Virus record (IMG/VR): IMGVR_UViG_3300036770_008028
Location: 32,001 to 96,000 of that record
Source: a virus
Direction: 5' to 3' (one strand)
Length of the DNA stretch: 64,000 nucleotides
In this document: piece by piece, positions 13,891 to 64,000 of the stretch
Layout of the letters: each line of letters starts with the position of its first letter
Position numbering within the stretch: position 1 is the first letter of the stretch
Notes under the pieces: generated by a model
Told to the model about the DNA's origin: nothing
The model's database searches: none
Seen by the model: the letters and a program-made list of their open reading frames with translations, nothing else
Translations under genes and position numbers: made by a program

Positions 13891-13920
13891 TATAAATAAT
13901 CGCATACCCTTTTATTTATA
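13891..13920. promoter_or_regulatory. Two opposed perfect late promoters
   Basis: TATAAATA on + at 13891-13898 and on - at 13913-13920, in the 50-bp gap between divergent genes. Confidence 0.75.
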
Positions 13921-15924: not shown

Positions 15925-16256
15925 GCGACTTATACACCATATGGGCAGACAAAGAAGGCGATATATCAGACCTTGAATGGGTCAACGGGATGAAAAGTTT
16001 TTTTGATCACTTGATCTCTGAAGGCAAGATGCTGACTTACAGGATCACTCGTTGCAAGATGGGCTTCCGCAGCATACCTGATCTTCCGGAGTGGATGATC
16101 ATCATGGAGTTCCGAGACATGGCACAGATGGATGCCGCATTCCGGAGGGTGGCACCGCTTGAGGGTGAACTAGAATCCAAGCACCGATCATTCAATCAAT
16201 TTGTGGCCGGTAACATACAGCATGCGCTATTCCGAGATTGGCCCGATCGGTTCTAG
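15921..16256 (+). CDS. DUF6614-like small protein
   Basis: YRITRCKMG...IIMEFRDMAQMDAAF...ALFRDWPD pattern; ATGA coupling to the previous gene. Confidence 0.55.
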   Translation: MSDLYTIWADKEGDISDLEWVNGMKSFFDHLISEGKMLTYRITRCKMGFRSIPDLPEWMIIMEFRDMAQMDAAFRRVAPLEGELESKHRSFNQFVAGNIQHALFRDWPDRF

Positions 16257-33600: not shown

Positions 33601-34170
33601 ATACGTGACACCACTGGCTCTGTTCCAGAGCCTCCTATTCCGACTCTGGGACAGTTGACCACGGCCTATTCTGGACTCAATGATTTCAAGATGATATCGG
33701 ATAACATCGTACTGAATTCTGTGTTATTCAAACCCTTGTTTGGCGCTAAAGCCGCTCCAGAACTCAGAGCAGTGATCAAAGTGGTGCGTGCGCCAAAGAC
33801 CACGGCTTCGGTAAGCGAGATCAAGAGCCAGGTAGTGGCCAATATGAACAACTATTTCAGCATTGACAAATGGGACTTTGGTGACAGTTTCTTCTTCTCG
33901 GAGTTGGCAGCATATCTGCATGAGCAGATGGGCAGCATCATCAGTTCTGTGGTGTTGGTGCCGTTGAATCCTCTCAAGAGTTTTGGAGATCTCTACGAAA
34001 TAAGATCCGCACCTAACGAGATTTTCGTCAATGCTACCACGGTCACTGACGTAGAAGTGATCGAAGCATTGACACAGAGTAATCTCCGTAGCCAGACCGC
34101 AGTTTCTGGACTGGCACCTACCAGCATCAGCCAAGGTACTGCAGGCCGCGGCACAGTGACAGGCGCATGA
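30700..34170 (+). CDS. gp6: Baseplate wedge protein gp6
   Basis: YDFETLR, ARENFLDTAERRDSV, YTPKR, FGDGVF, IKQRAP...QNRMVNGEDY; TAAATA at 30676-30681. Confidence 0.9.
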   Translation: MAKTARQTAIFGVEDWKRLYQTFREADFQSYDFETLRKSFVDYLRVYYPETFNDYIESSEFIALLDVMAFMGQALAFRNDLNARENFLDTAERRDSVVRLANLVSYTPKRNQAAQGFLKVFSVATTENLTDFNGISLANVTVDWNDPTNPNWLEQFTQIINAALVDSQKFGRPGASQNILGVRTDEYAINIVPGFLAVVPYTATVDGVNMPFEAVSATTEGQDYVYEPAPRPSGVFNILYRNDQLGFGSDDTGFFFLFKQGVLQNQDFNLAEAVANRTVNINIEGCNQEDHWLYKLDDVGSIADEWTFVESIYAGAVEQLAPDQRQLYSITSRANDQITLTFGDGVFAEIPVGFFRAYVRASNGLQYIINPEEMQAVPITLSYISRFGRLETLTLTCGITQPVSNAQPRETIQEIKQRAPARYYTQNRMVNGEDYNNFPFTKFNSIIKSKAVARSSIGTSRYIDLTDITGKYSSTNIFASDGLIYRENVLPTFNFAWINRNEIVDVINNSVEPLLGTRSLNQFYYANFIRPNLAVLNLSWQQSTRLVNETTGFFYVGTAASPRPIGEFSSNNTRYITQGSLIKFEPPAGFFFDANNRLVAGVPVRADEKLVVWATVTAVVGDGTNQGQGNLDDGSGPVTLNNFVPTGARATQVIPKFSTDLTSTVENSAIQQIELFRNFGLGYNNLAGEWYVITSTNLAADAAFSLANQQSTAGTNLDASWLVQFVTDGVSYTVTSRGLDYLWGSVIQTRFTFDGSEEVYDSRTGLVINDFVRALKTNSRPDTNEPLTNDITMDIIAQPVESDGYVNDYQVVVSYADSDADGVADDPDFFDTLVAPTVDSTRKLVFLQLVTDFDDLERYLPVASGVVNTLYATKDAIELVKTEFVDGQIFYATTEQAFYELEVDVINGVIQRVLVPRTDFESRVGRQDLYFQYRHNSPLTNVIDPGVTNIIDLYVVVQEYYTQYQNYIRDTTGSVPEPPIPTLGQLTTAYSGLNDFKMISDNIVLNSVLFKPLFGAKAAPELRAVIKVVRAPKTTASVSEIKSQVVANMNNYFSIDKWDFGDSFFFSELAAYLHEQMGSIISSVVLVPLNPLKSFGDLYEIRSAPNEIFVNATTVTDVEVIEALTQSNLRSQTAVSGLAPTSISQGTAGRGTVTGA

Positions 34171-43100: not shown

Positions 43101-46100
43101 ACGATGCCGCAGCAATTCCGTTGAGCAAACTCGCAGTGTTACCAGCATCCGATGCCGGCGGTATCGCCTTGTTTGATGATCTCGATTTTGAAACTTATGC
43201 AAGCCAGCAGATTATCCAGAGTCCGGTACCTCAGGCCTATGCGCACTTTGGTGCCGCAGTGTTCATCAGCGATAGCGTGGTTGATCTGGTTGTGGGTGCA
43301 CCGCAGGCCACGGCCTTCAACCCCACTACTTTTGACAATGGTACCACGATATTTGATGCTGCCAGCACCAACTTCTTGGATCCGGTGTCCGAGAGTGGTG
43401 CTGTCTATACGTTTGAGCTGCTGCCCGCAGCCAATGCATCTGTGACCAACCCTGCACAGTGGATATTCGGTCAGCAGTTGTACGATCCGTTGGTAGGCCC
43501 GTTGGACCAGTTTGGTACCGCAGTAGATTACACCACTGGTGTGCTCCTGGTAGGTGCACCAGGAGAGGATGCCGGGGACAGCAATGCCAACTACGGTACA
43601 ATAATAGAATTTAACAATCCTGACCGTCAACCGGCTTGGTCGATCAAGAGACTGCAACAGCCGGTGGTCGATATCGATCTCATGAACACAGTGTTCATGT
43701 ATGATCTCAACACTTCTGGTACCAAACAATATTTTGATTTCTTTGATCCTTTGCAGGGCAAGATCCTGGGCGCAGTACGGCAGAATCTTGATTACATCGG
43801 CGCAGTGGATCCAGCAGCCTACAACGTGGGCGCATTGAACAACTATGGCAATCGATGGGGACAGGATCGTGTGGGTCAAGTCTGGTGGGACACTAACCGT
43901 GCCAGATTCATCGATCCCAATCAAGACGACATAACCTATGCCAGCCGCAGATGGGGACAGCTTTTCCCAGGATCCAGCGTAGAAATATACCAATGGGTCA
44001 GCAGTTCGGTACCTCCTGCACAGTACACAGGCCCAGGAATACCCAAGTACACCGACAGTTATGTGATCACGTCCAACATCAATGAACAAGGTGTATTTGG
44101 AACCACATACTTCTTCTGGGTCAGTGGTATCCGCACTGTGGATCGCACTGCCCGCAAGACCTTGAGCATCGATACGCTCGCACGCTACATCGAGAATCCT
44201 CGCAGCAGCGGTATCGCTTACATCGCTCCCATGAACTCTAGCACTGTGGCCATCTACAATGGTCTAGAATACATCTCTGCGCAAGACACAGTGATACATG
44301 TAGAATACGATCAAACCCCCAATGATGCTGTGGTGCACGTGGAATACCAGTTGGTGGCTCAGGATCGCGGCGACTCATTCTTGACCGACGGGTTGTATCG
44401 CAAACTGCAAGACAGTTTCTGCGGCGTAGATCTAGTGGGAAATCCTGTGCCAGATCCCAGACTGGCACCCAGCGAGCTCTATGGCGTACAGTTCCGTCCT
44501 CGCCAGAGCATGTTTGCCAACAGGTTCTTGGCCTTGGAAAACTATCTAGTAGAAGTCAATCGAGTGATGGCCCAGTACCCCTTGGCAGAAAGTCGCAAGT
44601 TTCCTTTGTTGCTGAGCGAGGATCCAGAGCCAACACCGGGATCTGGCGCATGGAACAAGCGTGTGGCCGACCTGGCAGAACTCAGTTACCAAGATTTGCA
44701 AGCAGTGCCGGTGGGATATCTCTATCTTGTTGGCAATGACAGTGATAACAATGGTCTATGGACCATATACGAAGTACAGTCTGGGACTGTACCCGGAAGC
44801 CGTGTATTGGGGCTGATACGGGTGCAAAGTTATGATACCAAACTTTACTGGAAGTACATCAACTGGTATCAGGCAGATTACAATCCTCTCACAGTGATCA
44901 CGGCCGAAGTCGAGAATTTTGCTGACCTAGCCACTCTCACCCTGCCTGCCGGAAGCACAGTCAAGGTACTGGATAACGCCGCGGGCAAATTTGAAATCTA
45001 TAGACTTGACGCAGATAATTGGGTGCGCGTGGCTCTGCAGGACGGAACCATGGAGATCCTGCCGCAGATATGGGACTACAGCCTGGGACGATTTGGGTTT
45101 GACGTAGAAGTGTTTGATGCACAATACTTCGATCAGGAGCCCGTGACAGAGACACGCAGGATCATCCAGAGCATCAATCAAGAAATATTCATCGACGATC
45201 TTGAAATCGAGCGTAACCGTCTCTTGATCCTGATGTTCAACTTCATCCTGAATGAACAGATCGCACCGATATGGTTGACCAAGACCAGCCTCATCGATGT
45301 GAATCACACTGTGCGACGCCTGGAACCATTCCAGATCTATCGACAAGACAATCAAGACTTTGTGCTGAATTACATACAAGAAGTCAAACCCTATCATACC
45401 CAGATCAGAGAATTCAATCTAATCTACAGTGGTGACGATGTATGGGATGGTACAGTCACAGATTTTGACGTGCCTGCCTATTACAACACCACAGAGCGTA
45501 TGTTTGTGAGTCCGGTGTTGGACGATACCGGAACACTGAGCACCACATCTAGCACACCCAGCACCAGTGCAATTTGGCAGACCTTGCCTTGGAGCCAGTG
45601 GTATCAGAATTATCTCTTGAGCATAGCGTCAGTCACAGTGATCGATGGAGGATCTGGTTACACTGTTCCGCCCGAAGTGATAGTGACCGGAGAAGCCGAG
45701 CGTCCAGCCATCATGCAAGCACGAATCAACACCGCGGGCGCAGTGGTCGGAATCGACGTGATCGATCCTGGCCTAGGATACCTGACCACTGCGCTGATTT
45801 CTTTTGATGGAGGCAACGGTACCGGAGCCCGAGCAGTGGCAGTGATGCAGAACCAATTGGTGCGTGATTTCGCTGTGACGATCAGGTATGATCGATATGA
45901 GTATCAGTCCACGATCCGCGAATGGCAACCCAACGAAAACTATGACAATGGCACACAGGTGCGCTATCTAGACCGTGTTTGGGCAGCCAGCAGCGATGAC
46001 AGCACCGGAGTACAGAGTGCTACATTTGATCCAGATCAGTGGACACTGGTCAATGCTGCCACACTGAGTGGTGCAGATCGCACCATGGGATTCTACGCAC

Positions 46101-50751: not shown

Positions 50752-50886
50752 AAAAGGATTTAGTTGCCCAGCTATCATATTAAAAAAATGACGCCTGCGA
50801 TTTAGATCGCTTTACTGTAGTGTTGCTACAGAACGCCGTTGTTTGATAGCGTTGAATTAAATCAACTAATACAAAGGGAAAAAGAA

Positions 50887-51849
50887 ATGGCTTACAGTTC
50901 TGGATCACTGATCATCGATGATGATTATAATATATTTGCCACGGGCAATGCCTCCGGCACAGGCGACAACAACGTGGCCAATCTCAACACGGTCTGGGGT
51001 ACCGGAACCGGAGACAAGGGATGGGGACAGAGTAGCCCAGTTTCCGCGGTGAGCGCCGGATCGGTGATCACGGCCACACAATGGACCACGCTGCTTAATC
51101 GCATGACGGCCGAGGCCAATCATACCAATACTTCGATCACAGCAATTTCAAATCCCAGCGCAGGACAAACTATCACTGCTTTCACTGCTCTCAGCACCAA
51201 TATCACCAACATTTTCAATGGTCGTAACAATGCCGCTGCTGTAGGATCCACTATCACCCTTAATGGTGTAGCCACGCGTAGCACCGCCTGGGCAACATCT
51301 CTCACAGCCACGCACACTGTAACATTCGCTTCCGCAGATGCCATGCGCTACTTCTTCAACGCAGGCGGACGTATCACCTGGGCCGGCGCACGTTCAGGTG
51401 GATCGGTCAATGACAAAAACACTTCCTGGACCAATCTTCTCACAGCCTGCGGTACGCTGAACTGGACCACGGGCACATCTACCCAGACCATCGCAGGAAC
51501 TTCCTACACTGGAACCACCAAAGTGGGTGGCTCTGGTTCTCCTACCACACTGTTGACTGGCACTGGTTTCTATGATCTGACCACGGGCAACACCGAAGTA
51601 TTCAAGCAATTTGCCAGCACATATCTTTACACCGTGAACTTTGTTTCCGTCAATGTGAGTTTGAATGCTGTTCCGGGTTCTTCCACAGTAATGACTTTCA
51701 CTGTGCTGTTTTCGGATGTGGAAGCCTCTCCAGAAGAGAACGTGGACGGTACCTTGACATCCACCATAACCGCCGTGGCACCCAGCACTACCTATCTCTC
51801 AGCATCCTGGGGCACACCCACACTGGCCAGTTCGATCACCGGTAGCTAA
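50887..51849 (+). CDS. Virion structural protein (T/S/G-rich)
   Basis: Start at ATG 50887 (MAYSSG); RYFFNAGGRI motif. Confidence 0.75.
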   Translation: MAYSSGSLIIDDDYNIFATGNASGTGDNNVANLNTVWGTGTGDKGWGQSSPVSAVSAGSVITATQWTTLLNRMTAEANHTNTSITAISNPSAGQTITAFTALSTNITNIFNGRNNAAAVGSTITLNGVATRSTAWATSLTATHTVTFASADAMRYFFNAGGRITWAGARSGGSVNDKNTSWTNLLTACGTLNWTTGTSTQTIAGTSYTGTTKVGGSGSPTTLLTGTGFYDLTTGNTEVFKQFASTYLYTVNFVSVNVSLNAVPGSSTVMTFTVLFSDVEASPEENVDGTLTSTITAVAPSTTYLSASWGTPTLASSITGS

Positions 51850-51936: not shown

Positions 51937-52236
51937 ATGAGCGATCTCACTGAAAAAATACGCACTCGATTTGCCCACGAAGCCGCCAAAAAAATCCTCC
52001 GAGAAAAATATCAGGCCAAGATGCTGTTTGCACATGCAGGTGGCATGTGGCGGGCAGGCCCGGAATTACAGACCACTCTGTTGACCTGCCCTGATTCAGA
52101 GGCAGTGCTGCTCGATGTGTATGAAACACCGGTAAAAGTCCAAACACAAGAATTGTATCGTGTGTCTCAGCAGCGTTGGCAAGAGCAGATGAACGCTTGG
52201 TTGACTGAATGGACCGAACTGCAACGACAAAGATGA
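51937..52236 (+). CDS. Hypothetical protein
   Basis: 99 aa, ATGA overlap with the next gene. Confidence 0.7.
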   Translation: MSDLTEKIRTRFAHEAAKKILREKYQAKMLFAHAGGMWRAGPELQTTLLTCPDSEAVLLDVYETPVKVQTQELYRVSQQRWQEQMNAWLTEWTELQRQR

Positions 52237-53039
52237 AAGGTGTGTTGGTCTATGCTTTCAACAACGGCCGCGTGGACTATTGGCGCCAGGCCGTGTGGTG
52301 CGCTGACCGCGTGTCACGACATCTGGCCCTGCCTGTGACCATAGTGACCGATCAGCAGAGCCAACAAGATCGGCACTGCAGCCACGACATCGTGATTGCC
52401 CAGGCACGTTCTGGCGGAACTAGATTGTACGATCACAAAAATGACACAGCCGGGCACGCATGGTACAACAGCAATCGGTATCAGAGTTATGATCTAAGTC
52501 CTTACGAACAGACCCTGGTCCTGGACAGCGACTATGTGGTCTGCAGCGATCAGTTGCTGACCTTGTTTGGTAGCGGCATCTCTGTCACAGCCATGAAGCA
52601 TGTGTACGATGTGACCAACAGAGACCAATTCCGATTGTATCAACACATATCTGCGCACAGAGGATTGCATCACTATTGGGCCACTGTGCTGTACTTCGAC
52701 CGCAGTGTGCTTTCGCGAGATTTCTTTGCACTGATGAACATGATTTCCAATAACTACAATCACTATGCACAGATCTATGACATGCCCAGCCGACCTTTCA
52801 GGAATGACTTCGCTGTGAGCATAGCCTTGAACACGATATATGGTCATGTGCCGGAAGCCGTTCCAGAGATCCCCTGGGCCATGGCCAATGTTTTCAGCGA
52901 CGTAGATATCACGCAGATATCTGATGATGTGTTTGATCTCACTTATGCAGCAGGCAGCCAGGCACGGCGTGTGCGGATCTCTGGACAGGATTTCCATTTT
53001 ATGAACAAAGTGGCGTTGGAGAAGATCTGTGCAGTTTGA
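52233..53039 (+). CDS. GT-A fold glycosyltransferase-like protein
   Basis: SPYEQTLVLDSDY (DxD), RNDFAVSIA, HFMNK; start at ATG 52233. Confidence 0.7.
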   Translation: MKGVLVYAFNNGRVDYWRQAVWCADRVSRHLALPVTIVTDQQSQQDRHCSHDIVIAQARSGGTRLYDHKNDTAGHAWYNSNRYQSYDLSPYEQTLVLDSDYVVCSDQLLTLFGSGISVTAMKHVYDVTNRDQFRLYQHISAHRGLHHYWATVLYFDRSVLSRDFFALMNMISNNYNHYAQIYDMPSRPFRNDFAVSIALNTIYGHVPEAVPEIPWAMANVFSDVDITQISDDVFDLTYAAGSQARRVRISGQDFHFMNKVALEKICAV

Positions 53040-53838
53040 ACACGAACGCGGATACTTGGTGATCGCCCAGAATACTGACACAGTGGACTATCTGCGCTGT
53101 GCCCGTGTGTTGGCCCGTAGCCTGCGCCGTGTGGAACCCGAGGCCAAGATATGTCTCCTCACTGATCGCGCTGACGTTGACGCTGAAGATTTTGATTTTG
53201 TAAGGACTTTCCCCTTTGGTGACCAAAGCGGAGACAGTGAGTGGAAGTTGCACAACGATTGGCAGTGCTTCTATGCTACGCCTTTCCGCCAGACCATCAA
53301 GATCGAAGCCGACGTAGTGGTACCCCACAGGATAGATCATTGGTTTGATGTCTGCCAGAGTCGAGACGTGGTCTTGACCATTGGTGCGAGAAACTGGCGC
53401 AACGAGTTATCCCCATCCCGTCATTATCGCAAAGTGTTTGACGACAACGACCTTCCTGATGTATACAATGCCATCACTTACTGGAGATTTAGCCGAGACG
53501 CTGAGATCTTTTTCAATACAGTAAAAAAGATCATGGGGGCCTGGCCAGCAGTGATGTCCGAATTAAAATTCGCGGCTGATCAACCCGTGAACACTGATCT
53601 GGCCTATGCGGTAGCAGCAAAGATGCTGGGCACAGAAAAATTCACGTTGCCGATGTCGGTTCCTAGCATGATACATCTCAAGCCTAGATTCAATAATCTG
53701 GCCTCTGACTCCTGGTGCAAAGAACTGGTATGGGAGATACTGCCCGATGGCATACGCATCAATACCGTGAACCAGACATGGCCTATACACTATCAGGAAA
53801 AAGCATTCGCCGAAGAGTTGGAGCGCCACTATGGATGA
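53029..53838 (+). CDS. GT-A fold glycosyltransferase-like protein (paralog of the previous gene)
   Basis: TPFRQTIKIEADV (ExD), TDLAYAVA, IHLKP. Confidence 0.65.
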   Translation: MQFEHERGYLVIAQNTDTVDYLRCARVLARSLRRVEPEAKICLLTDRADVDAEDFDFVRTFPFGDQSGDSEWKLHNDWQCFYATPFRQTIKIEADVVVPHRIDHWFDVCQSRDVVLTIGARNWRNELSPSRHYRKVFDDNDLPDVYNAITYWRFSRDAEIFFNTVKKIMGAWPAVMSELKFAADQPVNTDLAYAVAAKMLGTEKFTLPMSVPSMIHLKPRFNNLASDSWCKELVWEILPDGIRINTVNQTWPIHYQEKAFAEELERHYG

Positions 53839-54160
53839 ATTCTGGAAAGCAGTGGCAGAGGTCAACTGGGCTCCGCCTCCTCCGCCCGAATATCGTGTGT
53901 ATTACGATCCTGCCACTGGTGACATCATCGAGTACACCACCGAACATCACGACGGGGAATTTATCGTGGTGGACCGAGAAACATTTGCCTGCAATCGATT
54001 TGAACCCAAGATACGCGACGGGAGGATCACTTGGCCAGGTCCGCAAATCACCAAATTGGTACACAGTGCTGAGGGCACGACCTGCGATCCCTATGACATC
54101 ACGATCATCACAGATGCGCTCGAAGCACAACATTGGAGATTGAAGATCTATGAAAGTTGA
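53831..54160 (+). CDS. Hypothetical protein
   Basis: 109 aa, overlaps both neighbours in an operon-like arrangement. Confidence 0.65.
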   Translation: MDEFWKAVAEVNWAPPPPPEYRVYYDPATGDIIEYTTEHHDGEFIVVDRETFACNRFEPKIRDGRITWPGPQITKLVHSAEGTTCDPYDITIITDALEAQHWRLKIYES

Positions 54161-55076
54161 TATCGCAGAACTGGACTGTGTATACCTCAGTTACGATGAA
54201 CCCGAGAAAGAAGAATTCTGGGTCAAGATACGAAATATGGTGCCCTGGGCTCGGCGTGTGGATGGTGTGAAAGGATCCGATGCTGCACACAAGGCTGCTG
54301 CCGATGCTTCAGACACAGAACGTTTTATCTTGATTGACGGTGACAATATTCCGGATCCGGAGTTTTTTAATCTCACCATGGAATTCCCAGACGAGTCATG
54401 GGAGCAGGCGGTGTTCCGTTGGCGTGCCCGCAATCATATCAATGGTCTCATGTACGGTAACGGTGGTATCAGTTCGTGGACAAAGGATTTTGTGCTTAAC
54501 ATGAAGACCCACGAAAATACCGACGGACGCGACGAGACCGTAGTGGAATTTTGTTTTGATCCCTTGTATTGGCCCATGCACGATTGTTACAGTACCACGT
54601 ATCCTAATGGGTCGGCTTTCCATGCCTGGCGTGCAGGATTCCGTGAAGGTGTGAAGATGTGTTTGGATGCCGGCCGTCGTCCTACCACGGCAGAATTCCG
54701 TGACCGAGTACATCGACGCAATCTCGATCATCTCACTATCTGGCACAATGTAGGACAGGATGTGGAACATGGTGCATGGGCCATAGCTGGTGCTCGTCAA
54801 GGTACCTTTAAGACCATGCTTACAGACTGGGATTATAGAGAAGTACAATGGTTTGATGCGCTGGAACGTATATGGAACGAAGAAACAGCACAGCAAGATC
54901 CTGACAGCATCAGTAGAGATTGCGAAGATGCGCTAAAAATCCAACTGGATTTGCCTATGTGCATGATGCCGGCGTCGCAGAGTCGATTTTTCAAACATCA
55001 CTATCGTAGCAACTGGCACAATCGAGGAGTGATGACACGAGAGATTGACGTGATAAGGCAACAAGAAGGATGGTAA
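54150..55076 (+). CDS. Glycosyltransferase-like protein (GT-A type)
   Basis: LSYDEP, RVDGVKGSDAAH, FILIDGDN (DxD), YGNGG, AWRAGFREGVKM. Confidence 0.65.
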   Translation: MKVDIAELDCVYLSYDEPEKEEFWVKIRNMVPWARRVDGVKGSDAAHKAAADASDTERFILIDGDNIPDPEFFNLTMEFPDESWEQAVFRWRARNHINGLMYGNGGISSWTKDFVLNMKTHENTDGRDETVVEFCFDPLYWPMHDCYSTTYPNGSAFHAWRAGFREGVKMCLDAGRRPTTAEFRDRVHRRNLDHLTIWHNVGQDVEHGAWAIAGARQGTFKTMLTDWDYREVQWFDALERIWNEETAQQDPDSISRDCEDALKIQLDLPMCMMPASQSRFFKHHYRSNWHNRGVMTREIDVIRQQEGW

Positions 55077-55102
55077 GATATACCCATTGGTAAAGGATAA
55101 AA

Positions 55103-55720
55103 ATGCCCGCAAAACTTTTCTCTCAAATTTTTTCTCAAGATGAGATCAAACAGATAATAGACTACTATGCCACGCAACCGGTAATGGCACAGGACGAATG
55201 GTCCATCAACAAAGGTCTAGAATATTTCATACCAGGTAGTTTTATCGAAAAACTTTGCGGCCCAAAAATAACGGCAGTACTGGGTCCTCATGAATTTGCT
55301 ACTGGTGCCTATAAAGAATGTATCAAACCATATCCATTGCATGTGGACACCCATGTTGCTCATGATGAACTGAAAACCGTGACCAATTTTTCTGATCGTA
55401 AGATTCATGATCGGGCTCTATTGATACCATTGGTTCAAGGAGATTTTTTTAGAACAGTAATTTTTGATTGTGTATCATCCGAGAATGATTTTGATGATGA
55501 TATTGTTAATTGGATAGGACAACCGAATCATTTGCAGATCGAAGATTTCTCCCATTGTGTCAGAGACTTTAATCGGCACATCCAGTATCTGCCAGTGGAC
55601 TTAGATTATAAGTGGTCACTCGGAGACATGATAATGTGGAATCGAGATCAATTACACATCAGCACAGATTTTACAAGGTCGACTCAAACTAAACGATTCT
55701 TGATATTTTTCGTAGCATGA
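55103..55720 (+). CDS. 2OG-Fe(II) oxygenase-like protein
   Basis: LHVD (HxD), distal QLHIS, C-terminal KRFL; AT-rich. Confidence 0.55.
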   Translation: MPAKLFSQIFSQDEIKQIIDYYATQPVMAQDEWSINKGLEYFIPGSFIEKLCGPKITAVLGPHEFATGAYKECIKPYPLHVDTHVAHDELKTVTNFSDRKIHDRALLIPLVQGDFFRTVIFDCVSSENDFDDDIVNWIGQPNHLQIEDFSHCVRDFNRHIQYLPVDLDYKWSLGDMIMWNRDQLHISTDFTRSTQTKRFLIFFVA

Positions 55721-57123
55721 TTGATATTTTGATATGTTCTGTACCGGGCACTTTTAGTGATAGGCCTGCATTGGCTCCGGCAGTGTTAAAAGCATCTGTA
55801 CAGGAATACGGCTACACAGCAGTGGCATTGGATCTAAATATCGAGGTGTACAACGCCGTTAAGAAAAGCAGCAATCGAGTCATGCTGGAAAATTTTTTCC
55901 TCCGCCAAGAAATCAGTCCGCAGACTTCGACTGAAATCGGAGACTTGATAGAATATTGTATACAGCGTATCGTGTCTTATAAACCTCGGGTATTGGCACT
56001 GAGTTTGCTAACACAAGACAATCAGTTTTTCGCGATCTGGCTGTGTTGGTATGTTAAAATACAACATCCAGAATTACATATCGTGATAGGTGGCAGCGGA
56101 ATCAAAAATTTTATCGCAGAATCTAACATCAGTTTTGCCCAACTTTTATACGATAAATCGTTGATTGACGGTTATATCAACGGCGATGGAGAGTGCAGTC
56201 TGGTAGAGTACCTCAAGGACAATCGTGATTTTCCTGGAATAAATCACAGTGATTGGGAACCCGTGCAAGATCTAAATGCAATACCTTTTGCGGATTTTGA
56301 TGATTATACTTTTTCCAATTACAAAGAACCTGGAATTCCTATCTGCGACAGCAGAGGCTGTGTTAGATCCTGTGAATTTTGTGACATAATAGAACACTGG
56401 AAAAAATATCAATATCGCAGAGCAGAACATATCTTTGAAGAAATGCAGCATCAGATCCAGAAACACAACATCAAACGTTTTTTCTTTTATAATAGCCTGA
56501 CCAATGGAAACATGAAAGAATTTCGTAAACTGTTGGAAATGATTAGCGATTACAACAGTCGATGTCCAGAGCAGACTATTTCCTGGGATGGTTACTTTAT
56601 CGTCAGAAATAGCAAGCAGCATCCTGACGAATTATGGCAATTGATTAAACGAAGCAATGGTTCTCTGCAACTTGGTATCGAAAGTGTAGTAGAGCCGGTA
56701 CGTGTGTCCTTAGGAAAAAACTTCACCAATCCAGACATCGATTATCATCTAGAAATGGCAAAAAAATATCAAATACCGTTGCTGTTGTTGTTAATCGTTG
56801 GCTATCCAACTGAGACCAAACAAGATTTTGAATATACTAAACAGTGGTTCCGCGATCGAAAAGATTTCGCTGGCGATCCTGTGACACAGGTTGTTTTTAG
56901 CTTGGCTGCCATATTGCCAAATACCAAGTTGGATAGAAAAAGCACAGAATATGGAATTACTAAAGGAGAAATCCCCACAATCTGGATGCAACAATCTATA
57001 TCAGTTACCTTGCAAGATAGATTACAATATCATAATGAACTCGGCCAATTGCTTCAAGATTTACGATTCAGTGTCAGTGACGGCGGGAAATCAGTTGAAG
57101 TTTTCCAGGCGGAGATTTCATGA
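55717..57123 (+). CDS. Cobalamin-binding radical SAM enzyme (class B methyltransferase-like)
   Basis: PALAPAVLKA...LDLN, IVIGG, GDGE B12-binding domain; SRGCVRSCEFC; LGIES; IVGYPTET. Confidence 0.88.
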   Translation: MIDILICSVPGTFSDRPALAPAVLKASVQEYGYTAVALDLNIEVYNAVKKSSNRVMLENFFLRQEISPQTSTEIGDLIEYCIQRIVSYKPRVLALSLLTQDNQFFAIWLCWYVKIQHPELHIVIGGSGIKNFIAESNISFAQLLYDKSLIDGYINGDGECSLVEYLKDNRDFPGINHSDWEPVQDLNAIPFADFDDYTFSNYKEPGIPICDSRGCVRSCEFCDIIEHWKKYQYRRAEHIFEEMQHQIQKHNIKRFFFYNSLTNGNMKEFRKLLEMISDYNSRCPEQTISWDGYFIVRNSKQHPDELWQLIKRSNGSLQLGIESVVEPVRVSLGKNFTNPDIDYHLEMAKKYQIPLLLLLIVGYPTETKQDFEYTKQWFRDRKDFAGDPVTQVVFSLAAILPNTKLDRKSTEYGITKGEIPTIWMQQSISVTLQDRLQYHNELGQLLQDLRFSVSDGGKSVEVFQAEIS

Positions 57124-57572
57124 AACAGGTTCCTGTGTCTCTGATGATACAATCCCATCATTGTAACGGATCAATGTCTTTGAAACTGTTCAACGATGAT
57201 CGGAATCTTCTAGATTTGACAAGTCTAGAATCGGGCCATCACAAACTAGATTTCATGATCGACTGGCCTTCAAAGATAAGGATCTTTGTCGAAGGAAAAA
57301 ATCAAAACGATACCGAGGTCGACAGCGGTGGTAATGTGATAGCAGATAAAGCCATTGAACTCATCTCAATCATGATAAACAATTTTCCATTACATCCTGA
57401 TCTAATAGATAAATTATGTTGCTGCCGCAGATCAAATCAACAGTCTATAAGTCATGAGAATTATTGGGGCTTTAATGGACTAGTGGAAATCATTTTCGAT
57501 CATGCCAACCCATTGAGATTTATGTTGGCATTATCGAGTAAATTTGAAATACCACGATTAGAAAATCAATGA
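57120..57572 (+). CDS. Hypothetical protein
   Basis: 150 aa, ATGA-coupled on both sides; GKNQNDTEVD...DKAIEL, WGFNG. Confidence 0.65.
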   Translation: MKQVPVSLMIQSHHCNGSMSLKLFNDDRNLLDLTSLESGHHKLDFMIDWPSKIRIFVEGKNQNDTEVDSGGNVIADKAIELISIMINNFPLHPDLIDKLCCCRRSNQQSISHENYWGFNGLVEIIFDHANPLRFMLALSSKFEIPRLENQ

Positions 57573-58969
57573 CCACTAACAAAAGCCAATTCCTCAGCGA
57601 CGCTGAATCGATAAAAGAACGACTGGATTCAGTGAGCCCTTGCCTGTGCTTGGCCAAATGGAAGCAGGTCAGCCTGCACCTTACTACTGGACTCAATAAT
57701 AGTTGTTACCATCCACCGTTACATCGCATACCCATAGAAGAGATCAAACGCGATCCGGGTGCGTTACACAATACCCAGCACAAAAAAGAGCAACGGAAAA
57801 TGATGTTGCGTGGCAAAAGGCCTGCTGAATGTCAGTACTGTTGGAACATGGAAGATCTTGGTCAGATGTCGGACCGTCACTATCGTTCTGGAGAGCCCTG
57901 GGCTGCCGTGGATTTCGACCATATCGCAAATTCAACCGGAGATGAAGATGATGTCGTACCTAGTTATGTTGAAGTTAATTTTAATCACGCTTGCAATCTC
58001 AAGTGCAGCTATTGTAGTCCACAATTTTCGTCATCTTGGCAGGATGAATCGCAACGTCTGGGTGCCTATCCTACTAGCACTCCTCATAACGCTCCCGAGC
58101 ATTTCCTTGGAGATCGTCGCCCGATCCCTGTGAGAGAATATAATCCCTATGTGGAAGCCTTCTGGCAGTGGTGGCCTACACTGTATCCCAAACTCAGGCA
58201 TTTCCGCATGACCGGTGGCGAGCCGCTCATGGACAAGAACACATATCGAGTGTTTGACTACGTATTGGCCTTGCCCAAACCAGATCTGCATCTCAACGTC
58301 ACAAGCAACTTCTCGGTGGAAGAGAAACTGTGGCAGAAGTATCTAGACTATACCAAAAGTCTTTGCTCGACCAATATCGAACACTTCATGCAGTATGTTT
58401 CAATCGATTCGGGCTATATCGCACATGCCGAATACATACGCCACGGATTAGATGCTGCCAAATGCCTAGGACGTGTGGCACAGTGGCTGGATGAGATACC
58501 GGGACGAAACAGTCTCACTTTCATAATCACTATGAACAATCTGTCAGTGCTGGGTCTGCAGAAACTTTTGGAATTTGTTTTAGATCTAAGACGCACACAC
58601 AGCACCACCTATCAACGTGTGTGGTTCGACACGCCGGTGCTTCGACAGCCTGCTTGGCAGAGCCTGCAGACCTTGCCCGAAAGTTATGCTGCCATCTTGG
58701 AACGCACCGCAGACTGGATGGAACTGAACATGGAAACCGCAGCGGATCCTTTCCACGGATTCAAAGATTTCGAAGTGCAACGTCTGAGGCGTGACATAGC
58801 CTGGATGCGTAAAGGTCAGACCTTGCCGGCGCAGCAAGTAAATAAAGACAAAGCAGATTTTTATCGTTTCTTTTTAGAACACGACCGACGCCGCGGTACC
58901 AATTTCCTGTCAACATTTCCTGAAATGACTGCCTGGTGGAAAGAGTGTGAATACCATGCCAAACAATGA
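57569..58969 (+). CDS. Radical SAM protein with N-terminal twitch-like domain
   Basis: CLAKW...SCYHP...CQYC; CNLKCSYC; MTGGEP; EYIRHG. Confidence 0.9.
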   Translation: MTTNKSQFLSDAESIKERLDSVSPCLCLAKWKQVSLHLTTGLNNSCYHPPLHRIPIEEIKRDPGALHNTQHKKEQRKMMLRGKRPAECQYCWNMEDLGQMSDRHYRSGEPWAAVDFDHIANSTGDEDDVVPSYVEVNFNHACNLKCSYCSPQFSSSWQDESQRLGAYPTSTPHNAPEHFLGDRRPIPVREYNPYVEAFWQWWPTLYPKLRHFRMTGGEPLMDKNTYRVFDYVLALPKPDLHLNVTSNFSVEEKLWQKYLDYTKSLCSTNIEHFMQYVSIDSGYIAHAEYIRHGLDAAKCLGRVAQWLDEIPGRNSLTFIITMNNLSVLGLQKLLEFVLDLRRTHSTTYQRVWFDTPVLRQPAWQSLQTLPESYAAILERTADWMELNMETAADPFHGFKDFEVQRLRRDIAWMRKGQTLPAQQVNKDKADFYRFFLEHDRRRGTNFLSTFPEMTAWWKECEYHAKQ

Positions 58970-60296
58970 TCTAGAATTCCGCCAGCAAGTGCTGGACCCA
59001 ATCTCTTCCAGTTTCTGCGGAGCCAAATGGTACAATGCCACCATCTGGCTAGGTTCCGGCATGACCACATCATGCCACCATCCCCCGGCGCACCCGGTCG
59101 ACATTGATGCAGTGAAATCCAATCCCCGCCTGTTGCACAACACCGCCCAGAAGAAACAGGACCGTGCAGACATGCAGGCTGGTCGCAGGCCCGCAGGCTG
59201 TGAATACTGCTGGAAGATCGAAGACATGGGGCGCGATGCTGTGAGCGATCGCATATATAAGAGCAAGATTTATGAAATACATGACCTACATACGGCTGCT
59301 CGCACGCCGCCAGATCAAGATATCAATCTCAAAACCCTTGAGATATCATTTGATCGTACTTGCCAGTTTGCTTGCTCTTACTGTAATCCTGCTTTCAGTA
59401 GTACATGGGTTAAAGATATTAGGAACCATGGACCCTACCTCGACCTTGTTTCAGACGGTAGAAATCATTTTACTCACGAGCATGATAGTGCTCAACGCTT
59501 TCGCTTTGGAGAACGTAATCCATACGTGGATGCGTTTTTCTCGTGGTGGGAAACCGATCTTCACCGCACACTGGACGAACTCCGTATTACAGGCGGCGAG
59601 CCGCTCATGTCCGGATACACATGGAAACTTGTTGACTGGTTCCGGGACAATCCAGGACGATCCAAAACCAGACTGGCCATAAACTCAAATCTTGGCATGG
59701 AATTTGACACGATCAAGAGATTGTTGGATTCCACCCAGGGCCTTGAACTAGATATCTATACTTCAAACGAAAGCATGGACGTACATGCCGAGTATATCCG
59801 CGATGGCCTGGCCTGGCCCCAGTGGATCTACAACATGCGACAGATCATGGAATCCGGCCGTGTGCGAGCTCTGCACGTGATGTGCACCATAAATGCCTTG
59901 TGCCTAGAGAGCCTGCCGGAATTCCTGGATCAACTCATGTGGTGGAAAAATCACTACGGAACCAATTTCCCCAACTTTACCCTGAATATCTTGCGCTTCC
60001 CCAGTTTCCAGTCGCCCTTGGTATTGCCTGACGATATCCGCATGCGGCATCGAGATCGTCTACAGTGCTGGCTGGATCAGTGGACCAACAATGTCATGCT
60101 GCAGGAACATGAACGCAACCATGTCAGACGGCTGATAGACTATCTTGACGTTGTCAAAACTCCGCACAGCGACGCGTTTGACATGCCACGATTACACAAC
60201 GACTTCCGTCGGTTTTTTACCCAGTACGATCAACGCCGCGGTAAAGATTTTGTCACGACTTTTTCAAATCTCAAAGATTGGTATCTCTCATTATGA
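58956..60296 (+). CDS. Radical SAM protein with N-terminal twitch-like domain
   Basis: FCGAKW...SCHHP...CEYC; CQFACSYC; ITGGEP; EYIRDG. Confidence 0.9.
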   Translation: MPNNDLEFRQQVLDPISSSFCGAKWYNATIWLGSGMTTSCHHPPAHPVDIDAVKSNPRLLHNTAQKKQDRADMQAGRRPAGCEYCWKIEDMGRDAVSDRIYKSKIYEIHDLHTAARTPPDQDINLKTLEISFDRTCQFACSYCNPAFSSTWVKDIRNHGPYLDLVSDGRNHFTHEHDSAQRFRFGERNPYVDAFFSWWETDLHRTLDELRITGGEPLMSGYTWKLVDWFRDNPGRSKTRLAINSNLGMEFDTIKRLLDSTQGLELDIYTSNESMDVHAEYIRDGLAWPQWIYNMRQIMESGRVRALHVMCTINALCLESLPEFLDQLMWWKNHYGTNFPNFTLNILRFPSFQSPLVLPDDIRMRHRDRLQCWLDQWTNNVMLQEHERNHVRRLIDYLDVVKTPHSDAFDMPRLHNDFRRFFTQYDQRRGKDFVTTFSNLKDWYLSL

Positions 60297-61999
60297 CCAT
60301 GCTGGAACTGATAGATCAGTATCAAAAAATTTATGACGTCGTGGCAGTGATTAATCTGGATCAGTGCTTTGACGTACCGTTTTATCAAAGAGAAATTTGG
60401 CTCAAATCGCAGATCGAACCTGCGTGGAGAAACCAATTCACTGAAAATCAGCGGGTGATTTTCACCATGACTCAGGGCGAGGAGTATAGTTCGCAGCACA
60501 GCCAGCGACCCAACATACTTTCTATTGTGCAAAAACTTTTAAATGAAGTTGATATCAGCAATTGTTTTGTGATTGTGCTGACCAATGACTGCCAAAATGT
60601 CGAATCACAAAAACAATATCTCAAACAGATCAGCACAGATAGCACTGCAATCACTTGGTACGTGTTTGATGATCCTCCATGGCCTGGATCAAAGCATGTG
60701 AAATCTTTGCCACAGGATTATGAATACAATAGCAGCCGTCCTGTGAAGATCGACCTGTCAGATCTGGACATCCGACAGCAGAATCTCTTGATGCAGAGCA
60801 AAGTGTTTTGCATGTACCCATGGGTACATCTACATGCCTACCCCACCGGAGAAGCCTGGCCGTGCTGCCAATCAGAGATGAAAGCCGGTGCAGTAGGTAA
60901 TTGTAAAACGCATACCTTGAGCGAGATCTGGAACAACACGCGTATGAAAGAACTACGAGTCAACATGTTGACAGGTATCCCAGATCCGCTGTGTGTGCGA
61001 TGTTACGAGCAAGAAGACAGCGGTTTTTTTTCTGGTAGACAAAGCGCAAATAAACATCACGGTCATCACATAGGACGTGTGGCTCATACCGCTGAAGATG
61101 GCCACCTTAGTCAATTCTCATTGACATATTGGGACATCCGATTTTCAAATCTGTGCAATCTACGTTGCCGCAGTTGTGGTCACATCTTTTCGAGCCAGTG
61201 GTACCAGGATCAGGCCAAACTGGCAGGGCATGAGTGGAAGTCGCGTAATCAAGTGTTGAACTATGCCGGCCGCACAGAACTCGACATGTGGGAACAACTA
61301 GAACCTCACTTGGACTGTGTGGAGCAGATCTATTTCGCTGGTGGCGAACCTTTGCTGATGGAGGAGCACTATCGCATCCTGGACGAGCTGGTGAAACGTA
61401 AACTGTTCCATGTGCGTCTAATCTACAATACCAATTTCACACACACCGATCTCAAAGGCCGTAGTGTGTTTGAGTACTGGAAGCAATTTCACAGTGTATC
61501 TGTTGGAGCCAGCTTGGACGCACAGGAAGAAAAAGCAGAATACATCCGGAAAGGCACTGATTGGGCCGCAGTAGAACAGAACAGACGAGACATGTTGGCC
61601 ATATGTCCAGAAGTGGATTTCTATGTATCCCCCACACTGAGTGTGCTCAATGCCTGGCATTTGCCTGATTTTCATCGATCCTGGGTTGATAAAGGCTTGA
61701 TACGAGCACAGGATCTTAATGTAAACATTTTGCAGGATCCGGCATATTATCGTATAGACATAGCGCCCATGGAGTACAAACAGCGATTGAGAGTGAAGTT
61801 TGAAGAACATCTTGATTGGTTACGATCTCGAGACCCGTTGCAACGTGCTACAGTGGGATTTACCAGCGCGATTAAATTCATGATGGCCACCGATAACAGT
61901 CATCTCCTTGACAAATTTTGGTCAAAAACCAAAGAACTGGATGCTATCCGAGGAGAAAACATACTGCAAGTGCTGCCAGAATTAGAGGCCATGCAATGA
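60293..61999 (+). CDS. Radical SAM/twitch protein with a ~170-aa N-terminal extension
   Basis: FCMYPW...PCC...CVRC; CNLRCRSC; FAGGEP; YNTN; EYIRKG. Confidence 0.9.
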   Translation: MTMLELIDQYQKIYDVVAVINLDQCFDVPFYQREIWLKSQIEPAWRNQFTENQRVIFTMTQGEEYSSQHSQRPNILSIVQKLLNEVDISNCFVIVLTNDCQNVESQKQYLKQISTDSTAITWYVFDDPPWPGSKHVKSLPQDYEYNSSRPVKIDLSDLDIRQQNLLMQSKVFCMYPWVHLHAYPTGEAWPCCQSEMKAGAVGNCKTHTLSEIWNNTRMKELRVNMLTGIPDPLCVRCYEQEDSGFFSGRQSANKHHGHHIGRVAHTAEDGHLSQFSLTYWDIRFSNLCNLRCRSCGHIFSSQWYQDQAKLAGHEWKSRNQVLNYAGRTELDMWEQLEPHLDCVEQIYFAGGEPLLMEEHYRILDELVKRKLFHVRLIYNTNFTHTDLKGRSVFEYWKQFHSVSVGASLDAQEEKAEYIRKGTDWAAVEQNRRDMLAICPEVDFYVSPTLSVLNAWHLPDFHRSWVDKGLIRAQDLNVNILQDPAYYRIDIAPMEYKQRLRVKFEEHLDWLRSRDPLQRATVGFTSAIKFMMATDNSHLLDKFWSKTKELDAIRGENILQVLPELEAMQ

Positions 62000-63213
62000 A
62001 TGTGCCTCACGAAAAATTCTGTATCCTGCCCTGGATCAGTTTAGAAGCCAGCCCTGTTGGCACAGTGCGACCTTGTTGTCTGGCAGAAGAAGAGATCTCT
62101 GACGATGACGGAAACAAGTTTGAATTGATCGACGCAGAATTTTCTTCAGTGCAAAACAGTAGATACATGCGAGATCTCAGACAGCAATTCTTGGATCAAA
62201 AACAACCACGCACCTGTCGCAAATGCTGGAACGAGGAGCGTGCTGGCCGGACCTCCAAGCGCATGCATACCTTGGACCGTCTCAAACACATGGTCACGGA
62301 CCGTGATTGGACCGCAGATGCCAAGCCATTGATGTTCTTGGATCTCAAATTGGGAAATATCTGTAATCTCAAATGCCGTATCTGTGGGTCATGGAGCAGC
62401 AGCCAGTTTGCCGCCGAAGAGTTGCATTTCTTGAGGCAAGAAGAAAAAAAGACCAGTGTACACTATGAGATGCTGAAAAAAGGAGCATGGCCTCGAGAGA
62501 ACAAACGATTCTGGCAAGAAGTCGACACTGTGCTTGACCAGATACGCTATATCGAATTCACCGGCGGCGAACCTTTCATGATACGTGAGCACTTTGAAAT
62601 GTTACAGGGCATCGTGGATCGTGGTATCGCACACCAGGTCGAGATACACTATAATACCAATGGTACACAATGGCCGGAAGCTGCCGAACAGATCTGGCAG
62701 CACTTCAAAACAGTAGAGATCGCTTTCAGCATCGACGACCTTGACAGCAGATTTGAGTATCAAAGAACCAATGCGATATGGCAAGAAGTGATCACGAATC
62801 TACAGCGTTTCCGAGATCTTAGGTCTCGATACAAAAATATAACTCTGCAGGTATGTTCCACAGTGAACGTGTTCAATGTGTTTTATCTTGAAAGCCTGGC
62901 ACACTGGATAGACTCTCAGGATTTTGATTTCATTTATTGGAACATGCTACACGAGGCCTATTATCTTTCTGTGGGCACCATGCCAGACAAGGCCAAACAA
63001 GAAGCCATACGTAGGTTAGAAAACGCCGAGGTGAGAGATTTCCATCGCAGCGAATTCAATCGAGTGGCTGATTTCATCCGCAATGGTAACAGCCTGGACG
63101 GGAATATCTTGCGCATGAAAGTGGCCGACCTAGATCGCAAACGCAGTACGGATCTCAGAGTGGATCATCTGGATCTGGCCTTGGCCATTGATTACAACGG
63201 TCCCAATGGATAA
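61996..63213 (+). CDS. Radical SAM protein with N-terminal twitch-like domain
   Basis: FCILPW...PCC...CRKC; CNLKCRIC; FTGGEP; YNTNG; start at ATG 61996. Confidence 0.9.
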   Translation: MNVPHEKFCILPWISLEASPVGTVRPCCLAEEEISDDDGNKFELIDAEFSSVQNSRYMRDLRQQFLDQKQPRTCRKCWNEERAGRTSKRMHTLDRLKHMVTDRDWTADAKPLMFLDLKLGNICNLKCRICGSWSSSQFAAEELHFLRQEEKKTSVHYEMLKKGAWPRENKRFWQEVDTVLDQIRYIEFTGGEPFMIREHFEMLQGIVDRGIAHQVEIHYNTNGTQWPEAAEQIWQHFKTVEIAFSIDDLDSRFEYQRTNAIWQEVITNLQRFRDLRSRYKNITLQVCSTVNVFNVFYLESLAHWIDSQDFDFIYWNMLHEAYYLSVGTMPDKAKQEAIRRLENAEVRDFHRSEFNRVADFIRNGNSLDGNILRMKVADLDRKRSTDLRVDHLDLALAIDYNGPNG

Positions 63214-64000
63214 ACCGACTACCTTGTGTATGGCGCCCTGGACTCATACCTATCTGAGTCCGCAGACTGAGCGTCGCCTGTGCTGCGCCAGCCGAGAACC
63301 TGCACAGAATTTCCAGCAGTACATTGACACAGCCGCGGGCACAGGCGAATACATTCCCATCACGCTGGAACAGCACTGGAACTCGGAACACATGCGTTCG
63401 GTTCGCAGGCGCATGATGGCCGGAGAGATCTTGCCCGAATGCGACGTGTGCAACAACAAACTGTTGAACACCGATGTATATCGCACATACTTCAATGGAT
63501 TGTTCGGTCACAAATACCAAGAGGCCATGCACAGCACAGACCAAGATGGCCGTACCACTATGCTGCCAGTGAGCTGGGATTATCGATTCAGTAATCTCTG
63601 TAATTTCAAATGTCGTACCTGTGGCGACATGCTGAGTTCGGCATGGGAAAGTGAACAACGGCAGCACAAAATGATAGATTGGACCAATCCTAAGAACGGT
63701 TGGATGGTTCCAGCAGTACGTCAAGAAATCGTCAAGTTCCAAGAAACTCAGATAGAACAAGAATTCGCAGAAGCAGTAGAACAACACCGTGTGGAAGAAA
63801 TATATTGGGTGGGAGGCGAGCCATTGATGTATGAGCAACACTGGCGATACATGAAACGTATCGTAGAACTCGGTGATGGACCCAGACTCTATGCCAGATA
63901 TAATACCAATCTCTCTAGGGTAGATTATCGCGGTATCAATCTTTATCTGGACATCCTACGTCATGTAAGAGATTGGCAGATCTGCGCCAGCCTCGATGGA
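63206..64000 (+). CDS. Radical SAM/twitch protein, truncated at the window end (absent from the track)
   Basis: Manual translation MDKPTTLCMAPWTH...LCC...CDVC...SNLCNFKCRTC...WVGGEP...YNTN. Confidence 0.88.
   Translation, partial: MDKPTTLCMAPWTHTYLSPQTERRLCCASREPAQNFQQYIDTAAGTGEYIPITLEQHWNSEHMRSVRRRMMAGEILPECDVCNNKLLNTDVYRTYFNGLFGHKYQEAMHSTDQDGRTTMLPVSWDYRFSNLCNFKCRTCGDMLSSAWESEQRQHKMIDWTNPKNGWMVPAVRQEIVKFQETQIEQEFAEAVEQHRVEEIYWVGGEPLMYEQHWRYMKRIVELGDGPRLYARYNTNLSRVDYRGINLYLDILRHVRDWQICASLDG

Follow-up and report, generated by a model that had tools for sequence, protein, structure and literature searches.

Five N-terminal-twitch radical SAM paralogs beside the fibre genes of a giant freshwater phage suggest a glycan-tailoring cassette

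We analyzed a 64,000-nucleotide stretch of viral DNA (hereafter, the window) that makes up bases 32001–96000 of IMGVR_UViG_3300036770_008028, a single 157,498-bp IMG/VR contig of an uncultured giant freshwater phage. Directly behind its fibre-like genes lies a cassette of ~24 kb (window position 50839 to window-equivalent position 76036) that contains five tandem genes for radical S-adenosylmethionine (SAM) enzymes with an N-terminal twitch-like domain. Judging from alignments and a quick tree, the five paralogs are an ancient fixed set common to many phages rather than recent tandem copies. For the cassette as a whole, it seems about an even call that it builds an unusual glycan and modifies it chemically, both in the cytoplasm of the host (glycan tailoring); that the acceptor of this glycan is a virion protein is a more tentative proposal.

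A gene island follows the fibre-like genes

A preliminary description of the window, made from its letters and open reading frames (ORFs), had reported co-oriented, mostly overlapping genes that start behind the fibre genes and run past the window edge. This layout was confirmed. From 51937 to the window edge all the island ORFs lie on the + strand, with overlaps of 4–23 nt or gaps of at most 27 nt, and the operon goes on for ~12 kb beyond the edge. A ThyX gene and a DUF2201/VWA gene come next, and the end of the island was therefore placed near 76036.

A copy of the fourth paralog at 63–73% identity was found in 154 viral contigs, and 80 of these 154 loci formed our comparison set, in which an ortholog was defined by at least 50% identity. 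The bit scores given below for the paralogs refer to the NCBIfam model NF033640 (N_Twi_rSAM, twitch domain-containing radical SAM protein), which has a curated whole-protein cut-off of 170 bits.

50839–51849, + strand: fibre-like protein, 336 amino acids (aa), 30% Ser+Thr, candidate glycan acceptor
51937–52236, + strand: conserved 99-aa protein, ~57% identical orthologs in 40 loci, no family match
52209–53039, + strand: GT8-fold (GT-A) glycosyltransferase (GT)-like protein with a D-S-D motif, aligns with its paralog at 53029–53838
53029–53838, + strand: GT8-fold (GT-A) glycosyltransferase-like protein with an E-A-D variant of DxD, assigned from an AlphaFold2 model and Foldseek
53831–54160, + strand: conserved 109-aa protein, tblastn homologues at the same position in 51 of the 80 loci
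54150–55076, + strand: GT-A/GT2-like protein, 308 aa, invariant DGD, assigned from fold matches and fused relatives, recurring partner of N-twitch genes
55103–55720, + strand: 2-oxoglutarate (2OG)-Fe(II)-oxygenase-like protein, accessory, 205 aa, H80-x-D82...H185 read from the sequence, assigned also from structural neighbours
55717–57123, + strand: class-B-type radical SAM protein (B12-binding and radical SAM), accessory, PF04055 46.2 bits
57120–57572, + strand: 150-aa partner of the B12-type enzyme, 3′ of the B12-type gene in 5 of 7 related contigs, no family match
57569–58969, + strand: paralog 1, 302.9 bits, orthologs at a median of 70% identity, clade with Shimodaira–Hasegawa-like approximate likelihood ratio (SH-aLRT) support of 100
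58947–60296, + strand: paralog 2, 284.3 bits, orthologs 67.5% identical
60278–61999, + strand: paralog 3, 397.4 bits over residues 174–571, groups with bacterial members in the tree
61999–63213 (approximate start; longest ORF from 61918), + strand: paralog 4, 325.1 bits
63188–64000, + strand: paralog 5, truncated by the window edge and ending at window-equivalent 64504; full gene L001:1189-2505, 286.4 bits, orthologs 71% identical
16227–17498, − strand: dispersed paralog outside the island, 232.9 bits

The five tandem paralogs belong to one radical SAM family

The preliminary description counted six CxxxCxxC enzymes in the island, with at least five tandem radical SAM genes among them, and a further paralog at 16227–17498, and searches with Pfam and NCBIfam bore this out. 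The motif occurs in the B12-type enzyme and in the five tandem proteins; these five and the copy at 16227–17498 score 233–397 bits against NF033640, all over its cut-off. Nine genes of the 157-kb contig exceed this cut-off, four of them dispersed outside the island. As NF033640 members, the radical SAM genes fall outside the characterised cofactor-biosynthesis families, a separation on which the first proposal of a glycan pathway had depended.

Across an alignment of seven paralogs, four N-terminal cysteines (C8, C27, C73, and C76) are invariant, as are C122, C126, and C129 of the CxxxCxxC motif, and the Pfam SPASM matches of the N-twitch proteins lie N-terminal of the PF04055 core. The comparison with twitch-type enzymes such as BtrN was only partly upheld: a twitch-like four-Cys domain is present, and its residues 5–76 align weakly with the BtrN twitch domain in a profile search of the PDB (E 0.047), but the twitch sits on the opposite end, and BtrN chemistry serves as an analogy. 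An error in the ORF boundaries was considered as the origin of the N-terminal position and rejected, this being the defining architecture of NF033640. Paralog 3 has an additional N-terminal region of ~170 aa (60278–60787); most of its orthologs measure ~419 aa and do not have such a region, and the few that share it, with a weak phrog_12247 match, measure ~562 aa.

Identity between the paralogs is only 17–32%, while the orthologs of each share 65–71%. In the tree each of the five forms its own clade with an SH-aLRT support of 100, and paralogs 1 and 2 group together as a subfamily. The complete set of five orthologs was found in 66 of the 80 loci, always in the same order and on the same strand. 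Where the flanks reach far enough, the constant partners are the GT-A-like protein (62 of 67 loci), a 385-aa protein and a carbamoyltransferase (49 of 49 each), a family with a TEK motif (47 of 49), and an amidinotransferase (44 of 49, median identity 83.5%). Variable slots separate these fixed genes; the one that lies between paralogs 1 and 2 is occupied in 59 of the 66 loci and empty here. Near-complete relatives of 316–349 kb each encode 8–14 N-twitch proteins over the cut-off, and paralog 4 has more than 7600 homologues.

The solved structures with the nearest cores in profile searches of the PDB are 8VPO, viperin, SkfB, BlsE (E 1.6e-5), and MoaA, the best match being 8VPO (TvgB), a cyclopropyl synthase of peptides that are made on ribosomes and modified post-translationally (RiPPs). 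By sequence, then, the neighbours mix peptide and nucleotide-sugar enzymes and do not settle the substrate. Elsewhere, a dispersed N-twitch gene (L002:256-2243, − strand) adjoins a gene weakly similar to Asp/Asn beta-hydroxylases, a family that modifies proteins.

GT-A-like proteins accompany the radical SAM genes

None of the three GT-like genes had a match in Pfam or NCBIfam or a useful one in PHROGs. The GT-A fold, which the preliminary description had presumed, was found by structural comparison for the first two and is probable for the third. The AlphaFold2 model of 53029–53838, built from an alignment that included its paralog 52209–53039, reached a predicted local distance difference test score (pLDDT) of 91.8 and a predicted template modelling score of 0.91, and Foldseek matched it to glycogenin, LgtC, LH3, UGGT, LARGE1, and AgtA (E 6e-8 to 9e-6, probability 1.0), as well as to viral GT8-like proteins. 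D95, D190, and H254 are invariant in the alignment of the two proteins, whose joint profile found a GT8 structure in the PDB, AgtA, at an E-value of only 1.8.

The model of 54150–55076 was mediocre (pLDDT 66.8). For its residues 1–150, all of the top 50 VIA matches are GT-A or nucleotidyltransferase folds, GT-A-like at Z-scores of only 5.0–6.9. D63-G-D65 is invariant in this family, which shows a mean column identity of 80% among phages and comprises more than 7800 homologues. Fused relatives of 540 aa match the Pfam GT2 family weakly (25.7 bits for P0172 against PF00535, cut-off 23.3; 16–19 bits for the others), and further relatives adjoin N_Twi_rSAM genes in Bdellovibrionota and in Ralstonia phage RsoM2USA. 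The models thus show 52209–53039 and 53029–53838 as predicted GT8-fold transferases and 54150–55076 as a GT-A/GT2-like protein.

Sugar-tailoring genes lie beyond the window edge

Nucleotide-sugar enzymes, which the preliminary description suggested looking for past the window, were found there, together with two transferases of other groups. The genes beyond the window are:

385-aa protein, downstream of paralog 5, no family match
DUF6071 protein, SGNH-like by its N-terminal motif only
NodU/CmcH/TobZ-type carbamoyltransferase, Carbam_trans_N 129.9 bits and Carbam_trans_C 160.8 bits, both over their cut-offs
341-aa amidinotransferase of the AGAT/StrB1/SxtG/HsvA type, − strand, E 4e-15 to AGAT in three stretches
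TEK-motif family, three paralogs with the motif '...ET...LTEK.FKP...PF..G'
610-aa protein, C-terminus homologous to the 308-aa GT-A-like protein
DegT aminotransferase and NAD epimerase/dehydratase
Copies of the TEK-motif family: L001:6770-10193 (−), L001:17622-18776 (+), and genome positions 121325, 131478, and 143820

The catalytic Cys of the amidinotransferase is aligned ('GGISCCTQD' with 'GGFHCWTCD'), and the protein has no Pfam match at E 0.01. The 385-aa and 610-aa proteins have no match in Pfam, NCBIfam, or PHROGs, and the ESM Atlas was uninformative for the former. Seven copies of the TEK-motif family lie in the contig, and public data hold 14,236 of its representative clusters; it matched nothing in Pfam, NCBIfam, or PHROGs, and nothing in the PDB even with a 58-sequence profile, and the names on its distant clusters are all blank or 'hypothetical'. 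A likeness to GT10 fucosyltransferases was not upheld, the sole hhalign match to PF00852 being a local one that falls precisely on the GT10 signature 'EN..GY.TEK...P.YwG' with a probability of 2.5% (P 0.019). Nor was a general pairing of the dispersed radical SAM copies with TEK-family genes upheld in the near-complete relatives.

The B12-type enzyme and the oxygenase-like protein form an accessory insert

The preliminary description also placed an oxygenase and a B12-radical SAM enzyme in the island. Both assignments are tenable, but the genes are optional rather than part of the core. The B12-type protein (55717–57123) matches PF04055 over residues 212–377 with 46.2 bits (cut-off 29.5), and PF02310 over residues 73–128 with just 17.2 bits (cut-off 32.1); its best NCBIfam models are all B12-radical SAM families (with partial matches to PhpK-type and RiPP C-methyltransferase models), far under their cut-offs. 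For the oxygenase-like protein (55103–55720) no match was found in Pfam, NCBIfam, or PHROGs. Its structural neighbours in the ESM Atlas are 2OG-FeII_Oxy_5 and 2OG-FeII_Oxy_3 clusters (template modelling scores 0.64–0.65), with a weak TfdA match at the distal His, and these models and motifs make a 2OG-Fe(II) oxygenase plausible.

These two genes and the 150-aa partner are absent from the 80 cassette loci. In four other viral contigs an insert with the B12-type gene, 63–65% identical, lies in this slot; two of these contigs also have the oxygenase-like gene, and a 49% identical homologue of the B12-type enzyme adjoins SbcCD in three further contigs. The GC content is 0.40–0.45 across 54001–58000 against ~0.50 on either side, a dip that coincides with the three accessory genes and marks a recent insertion into the cassette slot. 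From these comparisons, the three genes are best described as an optional low-GC insert in a variable slot.

Relatives of the cassette in cultured phages and bacteria

A megablast of the island against GenBank phages gave no match, and GenBank phages hold only distant members of the cassette. A reduced cassette lies behind the wedge and giant structural protein of RsoM2USA. In the main locus of this phage, a gene for a distant relative of our fibre-like protein is again 5′ of two GT8-like genes, and the GT-A-like gene (40%) is present in two copies along with an ortholog of paralog 1 (ORF349, 36%). Its second locus has an ortholog of paralog 2 (ORF202, 49%, sister to the paralog 2 clade), DUF6071 genes, and the carbamoyltransferase (45%); an amidinotransferase was not detected in the regions fetched. 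ORF348-353 and ORF199-203 are all annotated as hypothetical, and the paper describing the phage does not discuss them (PMC8504454). In Synechococcus phage S-SCSM2R, the homologue of the amidinotransferase is ORF266, which belongs to a cluster with 3-deoxy-D-manno-octulosonic acid (Kdo), GT24, and 2OG-oxygenase genes and was found in purified virions (PMC12801897).

Among bacteria, N_Twi_rSAM genes are found chiefly in metagenome-assembled genomes (MAGs) of Bdellovibrionota, Flavobacteriales, Elusimicrobia, and Parcubacteria, often in tandem arrays. At least nine loci of Bdellovibrionota share a unit in which two GT-A-like genes precede an N-twitch radical SAM gene. The 105 neighbours at 15 bacterial loci include 21 further radical SAM proteins, three B12-binding proteins, three PMT_2 proteins, an ABC-2 exporter, and a nucleoside diphosphate (NDP)-hexose 2,3-dehydratase, and are enriched in GT2 (6 of the 105 proteins).

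The full phage cassette was also seen, at 52–75% identity, on contigs L086, L087, and L088, which were binned as Haliscomenobacter sp. EUL_031 (contigs of 183 kb and 148 kb) or as part of a Legionellales MAG; these are probably phage contigs mis-binned into species-representative MAGs. Contigs L090, L156, and L130, from MAGs classed as Elusimicrobia, Parcubacteria, and Rickettsiales, carry tandem arrays of six or seven N-twitch radical SAM genes.

Predicted function of the cassette

A phage pathway that builds and tailors a glycan, as first proposed from the window alone, remains the best reading of the cassette, with DNA now disfavoured among its possible targets. The phage would make an amino-sugar nucleotide, and its transferases would put sugars on a soluble acceptor, the best candidate being the Ser/Thr-rich fibre-like protein just upstream, or another virion protein. 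Carbamoyl and guanidino groups would come from the tailoring enzymes. The task of each of the five radical SAM enzymes would be to abstract a hydrogen from a sugar or sugar nucleotide, with the auxiliary four-Cys cluster handling the electron, and the outcome could be epimerisation, oxidation, dehydration, or C–C bond formation; a sugar oxidation like that of BtrN is suggested by analogy. Viperin, MoaA, and BlsE, which are among the nearest cores, act on nucleotides or nucleotide sugars and were counted in favour of glycan tailoring, as were the GT2, PMT_2, exporter, and NDP-hexose dehydratase genes of the bacterial neighbourhoods. The presence of ORF266 in S-SCSM2R virions was counted as a link to the virion.

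Several points weigh against it. The glycan itself is predicted from genes, and we found no literature on a characterised N-terminal-twitch enzyme or a tested NF033640 member. The peptide maturases TvgB (8VPO) and SkfB are also among the nearest solved cores, and four of the nine N-twitch copies of the contig lie outside the island. The neighbours of one Bdellovibrionota three-gene unit are MoxR, DUF58, further radical SAM genes, and SppA, with no sugar genes among them. Three constant partners, namely the 385-aa protein, the TEK-motif family, and the 610-aa protein, are without an assigned fold. Finally, soluble transferases could act on host lipid-linked intermediates.

As to the target, no membrane helix was predicted in any of the island proteins, and hence genes for a priming transferase, flippase, or polymerase are missing from the island. 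Neither a ThyA-fold hydroxymethylase nor a TGT/DpdA was found in this contig or in four 91–100% complete cassette-bearing relatives (316–349 kb), which, at the level of gene content, argues against the known routes of DNA modification. The Ser+Thr content of the fibre-like protein (30%) compares with a genome average of 13.4%, and its orthologs lie directly 5′ of the GT genes in 29 of the 67 loci whose flank reaches that far. Together, the lack of membrane parts and of DNA routes and the Ser/Thr-rich neighbour are circumstantial evidence for a soluble acceptor, most simply a virion protein. Phage transferases are known to glycosylate virions in mycobacteriophages, according to Freeman 2023 as cited in PMC12619734.

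The cassette might instead remodel a surface polysaccharide of the host (lipopolysaccharide O-chain or capsule) during infection, blocking superinfection or changing adsorption, which we regard as unlikely. Pelagimyophages hold GT8 genes and radical SAM cassettes in a fibre-proximal variable region for which O-chain modification was favoured (PMC7029224); the lipooligosaccharide GT8 enzyme LgtC is among the structural matches of 53029–53838, and ABC-2 exporter, PMT_2, and MurJ-like genes occur in the bacterial neighbourhoods. Against this, the island is devoid of membrane proteins and includes neither a priming transferase nor a flippase, polymerase, or ligase, and a cassette that is 65–83% identical across phages probably infecting different hosts fits a phage-intrinsic target better than variable O-antigens.

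It is rather improbable that the N-twitch enzymes are protein or peptide maturases that introduce cross-links, epimerisations, or other changes in fibre or virion proteins, with glycosylation a separate matter. SPASM/twitch enzymes are mostly peptide modifiers. The top PDB profile match is the RiPP cyclopropyl synthase 8VPO, with SkfB also high, and dispersed N-twitch copies lie outside sugar contexts, one of them beside the Asp/Asn-hydroxylase-like gene, as does the Bdellovibrionia unit that is devoid of sugar genes. However, viperin, MoaA, and BlsE score similarly to the peptide maturases, and the tight repeated pairing of the N-twitch genes is with GT-A-like proteins. No obvious RiPP precursor was seen among the small conserved ORFs (51937–52236 and 53831–54160), nor a recognisable RiPP recognition element, though no dedicated search was run.

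A soluble aminoglycoside-like or nucleoside-like metabolite bearing guanidino and carbamoyl groups, acting as an antibiotic or signal against competitors, has a slim chance. The amidinotransferase is related to StrB1, SxtG, and HsvA, a TobZ/NodU-type carbamoyltransferase and a DegT-type aminotransferase accompany it, the N-twitch enzymes are weakly related to BtrN and BlsE, and the authors of S-SCSM2R took similar genes to be antibiotic synthesis genes. No enzyme forming inositol or 2-deoxystreptamine, exporter, or self-resistance gene was seen, however; the position of the cassette beside the fibre genes is fixed, and at least three GT-A transferases with an expanded transferase-like family suggest an oligomeric glycan.

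GT8-fold enzymes are, to our knowledge, not known as DNA glycosyltransferases. Hypermodification of the phage DNA with a tailored sugar is highly improbable: there are well-known phage glycosyltransferases with DNA as their substrate (Pyle 2024, as cited in PMC12619734) and our contig is only 44% complete, but the four 91–100% complete cassette carriers are devoid of both enzyme classes named above, and the ThyX of the contig is an ordinary one.

Genomic setting of the window

The contig, with a CheckV completeness of 44%, comes from a myovirus with T4/Rak2-type parts in the window:

9681–11468: portal
18414–21190: SbcCD
27945–30266: gp5-like hub
30700–34170: gp6-like wedge
34172–48478: 4768-aa ORF after the wedge, with an FG-GAP repeat and weak CBM5/12 and DUF2460 matches

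Jumbo phages such as Atu_ph07 and CBB have wedges that are 33–36% identical to this one. The wedge is followed by the 4768-aa protein, which is probably the counterpart of the VrlC-type giant baseplate/fibre protein and of RsoM2USA ORF361, then by the fibre-like proteins, and directly after them by the island.

Scans for sigma-70 promoters and terminators gave no signal above shuffled sequences, and there is no exact T4 late-promoter motif TATAAATA inside the island. The only three exact TATAAATA motifs of the window (9678–9685, 13891–13898, and 13913–13920) flank the portal gene and a 793-aa gene.

Discussion

Two elements of this system were already known: the catalogue entry NF033640, and the presence of GT8 genes with 'radical SAM cassettes' in pelagimyophages (PMC7029224). 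All nine copies of our contig that exceed the NF033640 cut-off share the CxxxCxxC core and the N-terminal four-Cys twitch-like domain of the catalogued family, and what differs from the family as catalogued is the fixed, ordered set of five paralogs in phages, with 8–14 copies per near-complete genome. In pelagimyophages and cyanomyophages, the host recognition cluster is a variable region that follows a giant baseplate/fibre gene and includes fibres, GT8, and the radical SAM cassettes (PMC7029224). It resembles our island in its fibre-proximal site and in both gene types, but that study did not resolve the five-paralog set, the carbamoyl- and amidinotransferases, or the GT-A-like partner, and proposed O-chain modification without a test.

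Virion glycosylation in mycobacteriophages (Freeman 2023) and chloroviruses (PBCV-1 A64R) likewise uses soluble GT-A transferases encoded beside structural genes; these enzymes work in the cytoplasm, on virion proteins rich in Ser/Thr. Radical SAM, carbamoyl, or amidino tailoring is not part of those systems, whereas the present cassette is known from its genes alone. The antibiotic-tailoring enzymes BtrN, BlsE, StrB1, and TobZ stand for the same classes (twitch radical SAM enzymes on sugars, arginine-dependent amidinotransferase, and ATP-dependent O-carbamoyltransferase, along with DegT aminotransferase). Here, in contrast, the twitch is on the opposite end, the similarity is weak (E 0.05 for BtrN and 1.6e-5 for BlsE), there are no cyclitol-forming genes, and the location is a phage structural region. 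RsoM2USA shares paralogs 1 and 2, both GT8-like genes, the GT-A-like partner, the carbamoyltransferase, and the site behind the wedge and giant structural protein, and differs in having just two of the five radical SAM paralogs and a set split over two loci.

On a bolder and somewhat doubtful view, N-terminal-twitch radical SAM enzymes may be a new class of radical editors of glycans or glycoproteins, working as a fixed team of five with lineage-specific extras that include a B12-dependent methylase. They might produce a guanidinylated, carbamoylated glycan coat on the fibres of large aquatic phages that governs host recognition or shields the particle. The GT-A-like protein, the TEK-motif family, and the 385-aa protein are constant partner families that have so far carried no annotation, and RsoM2USA, a cultured phage with the reduced set, opens the question to experiment. 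Solving the cassette would tell which chemistry a large orphan radical SAM family performs and whether self-glycosylation occurs in giant aquatic phages, and could reveal new sugar modifications.

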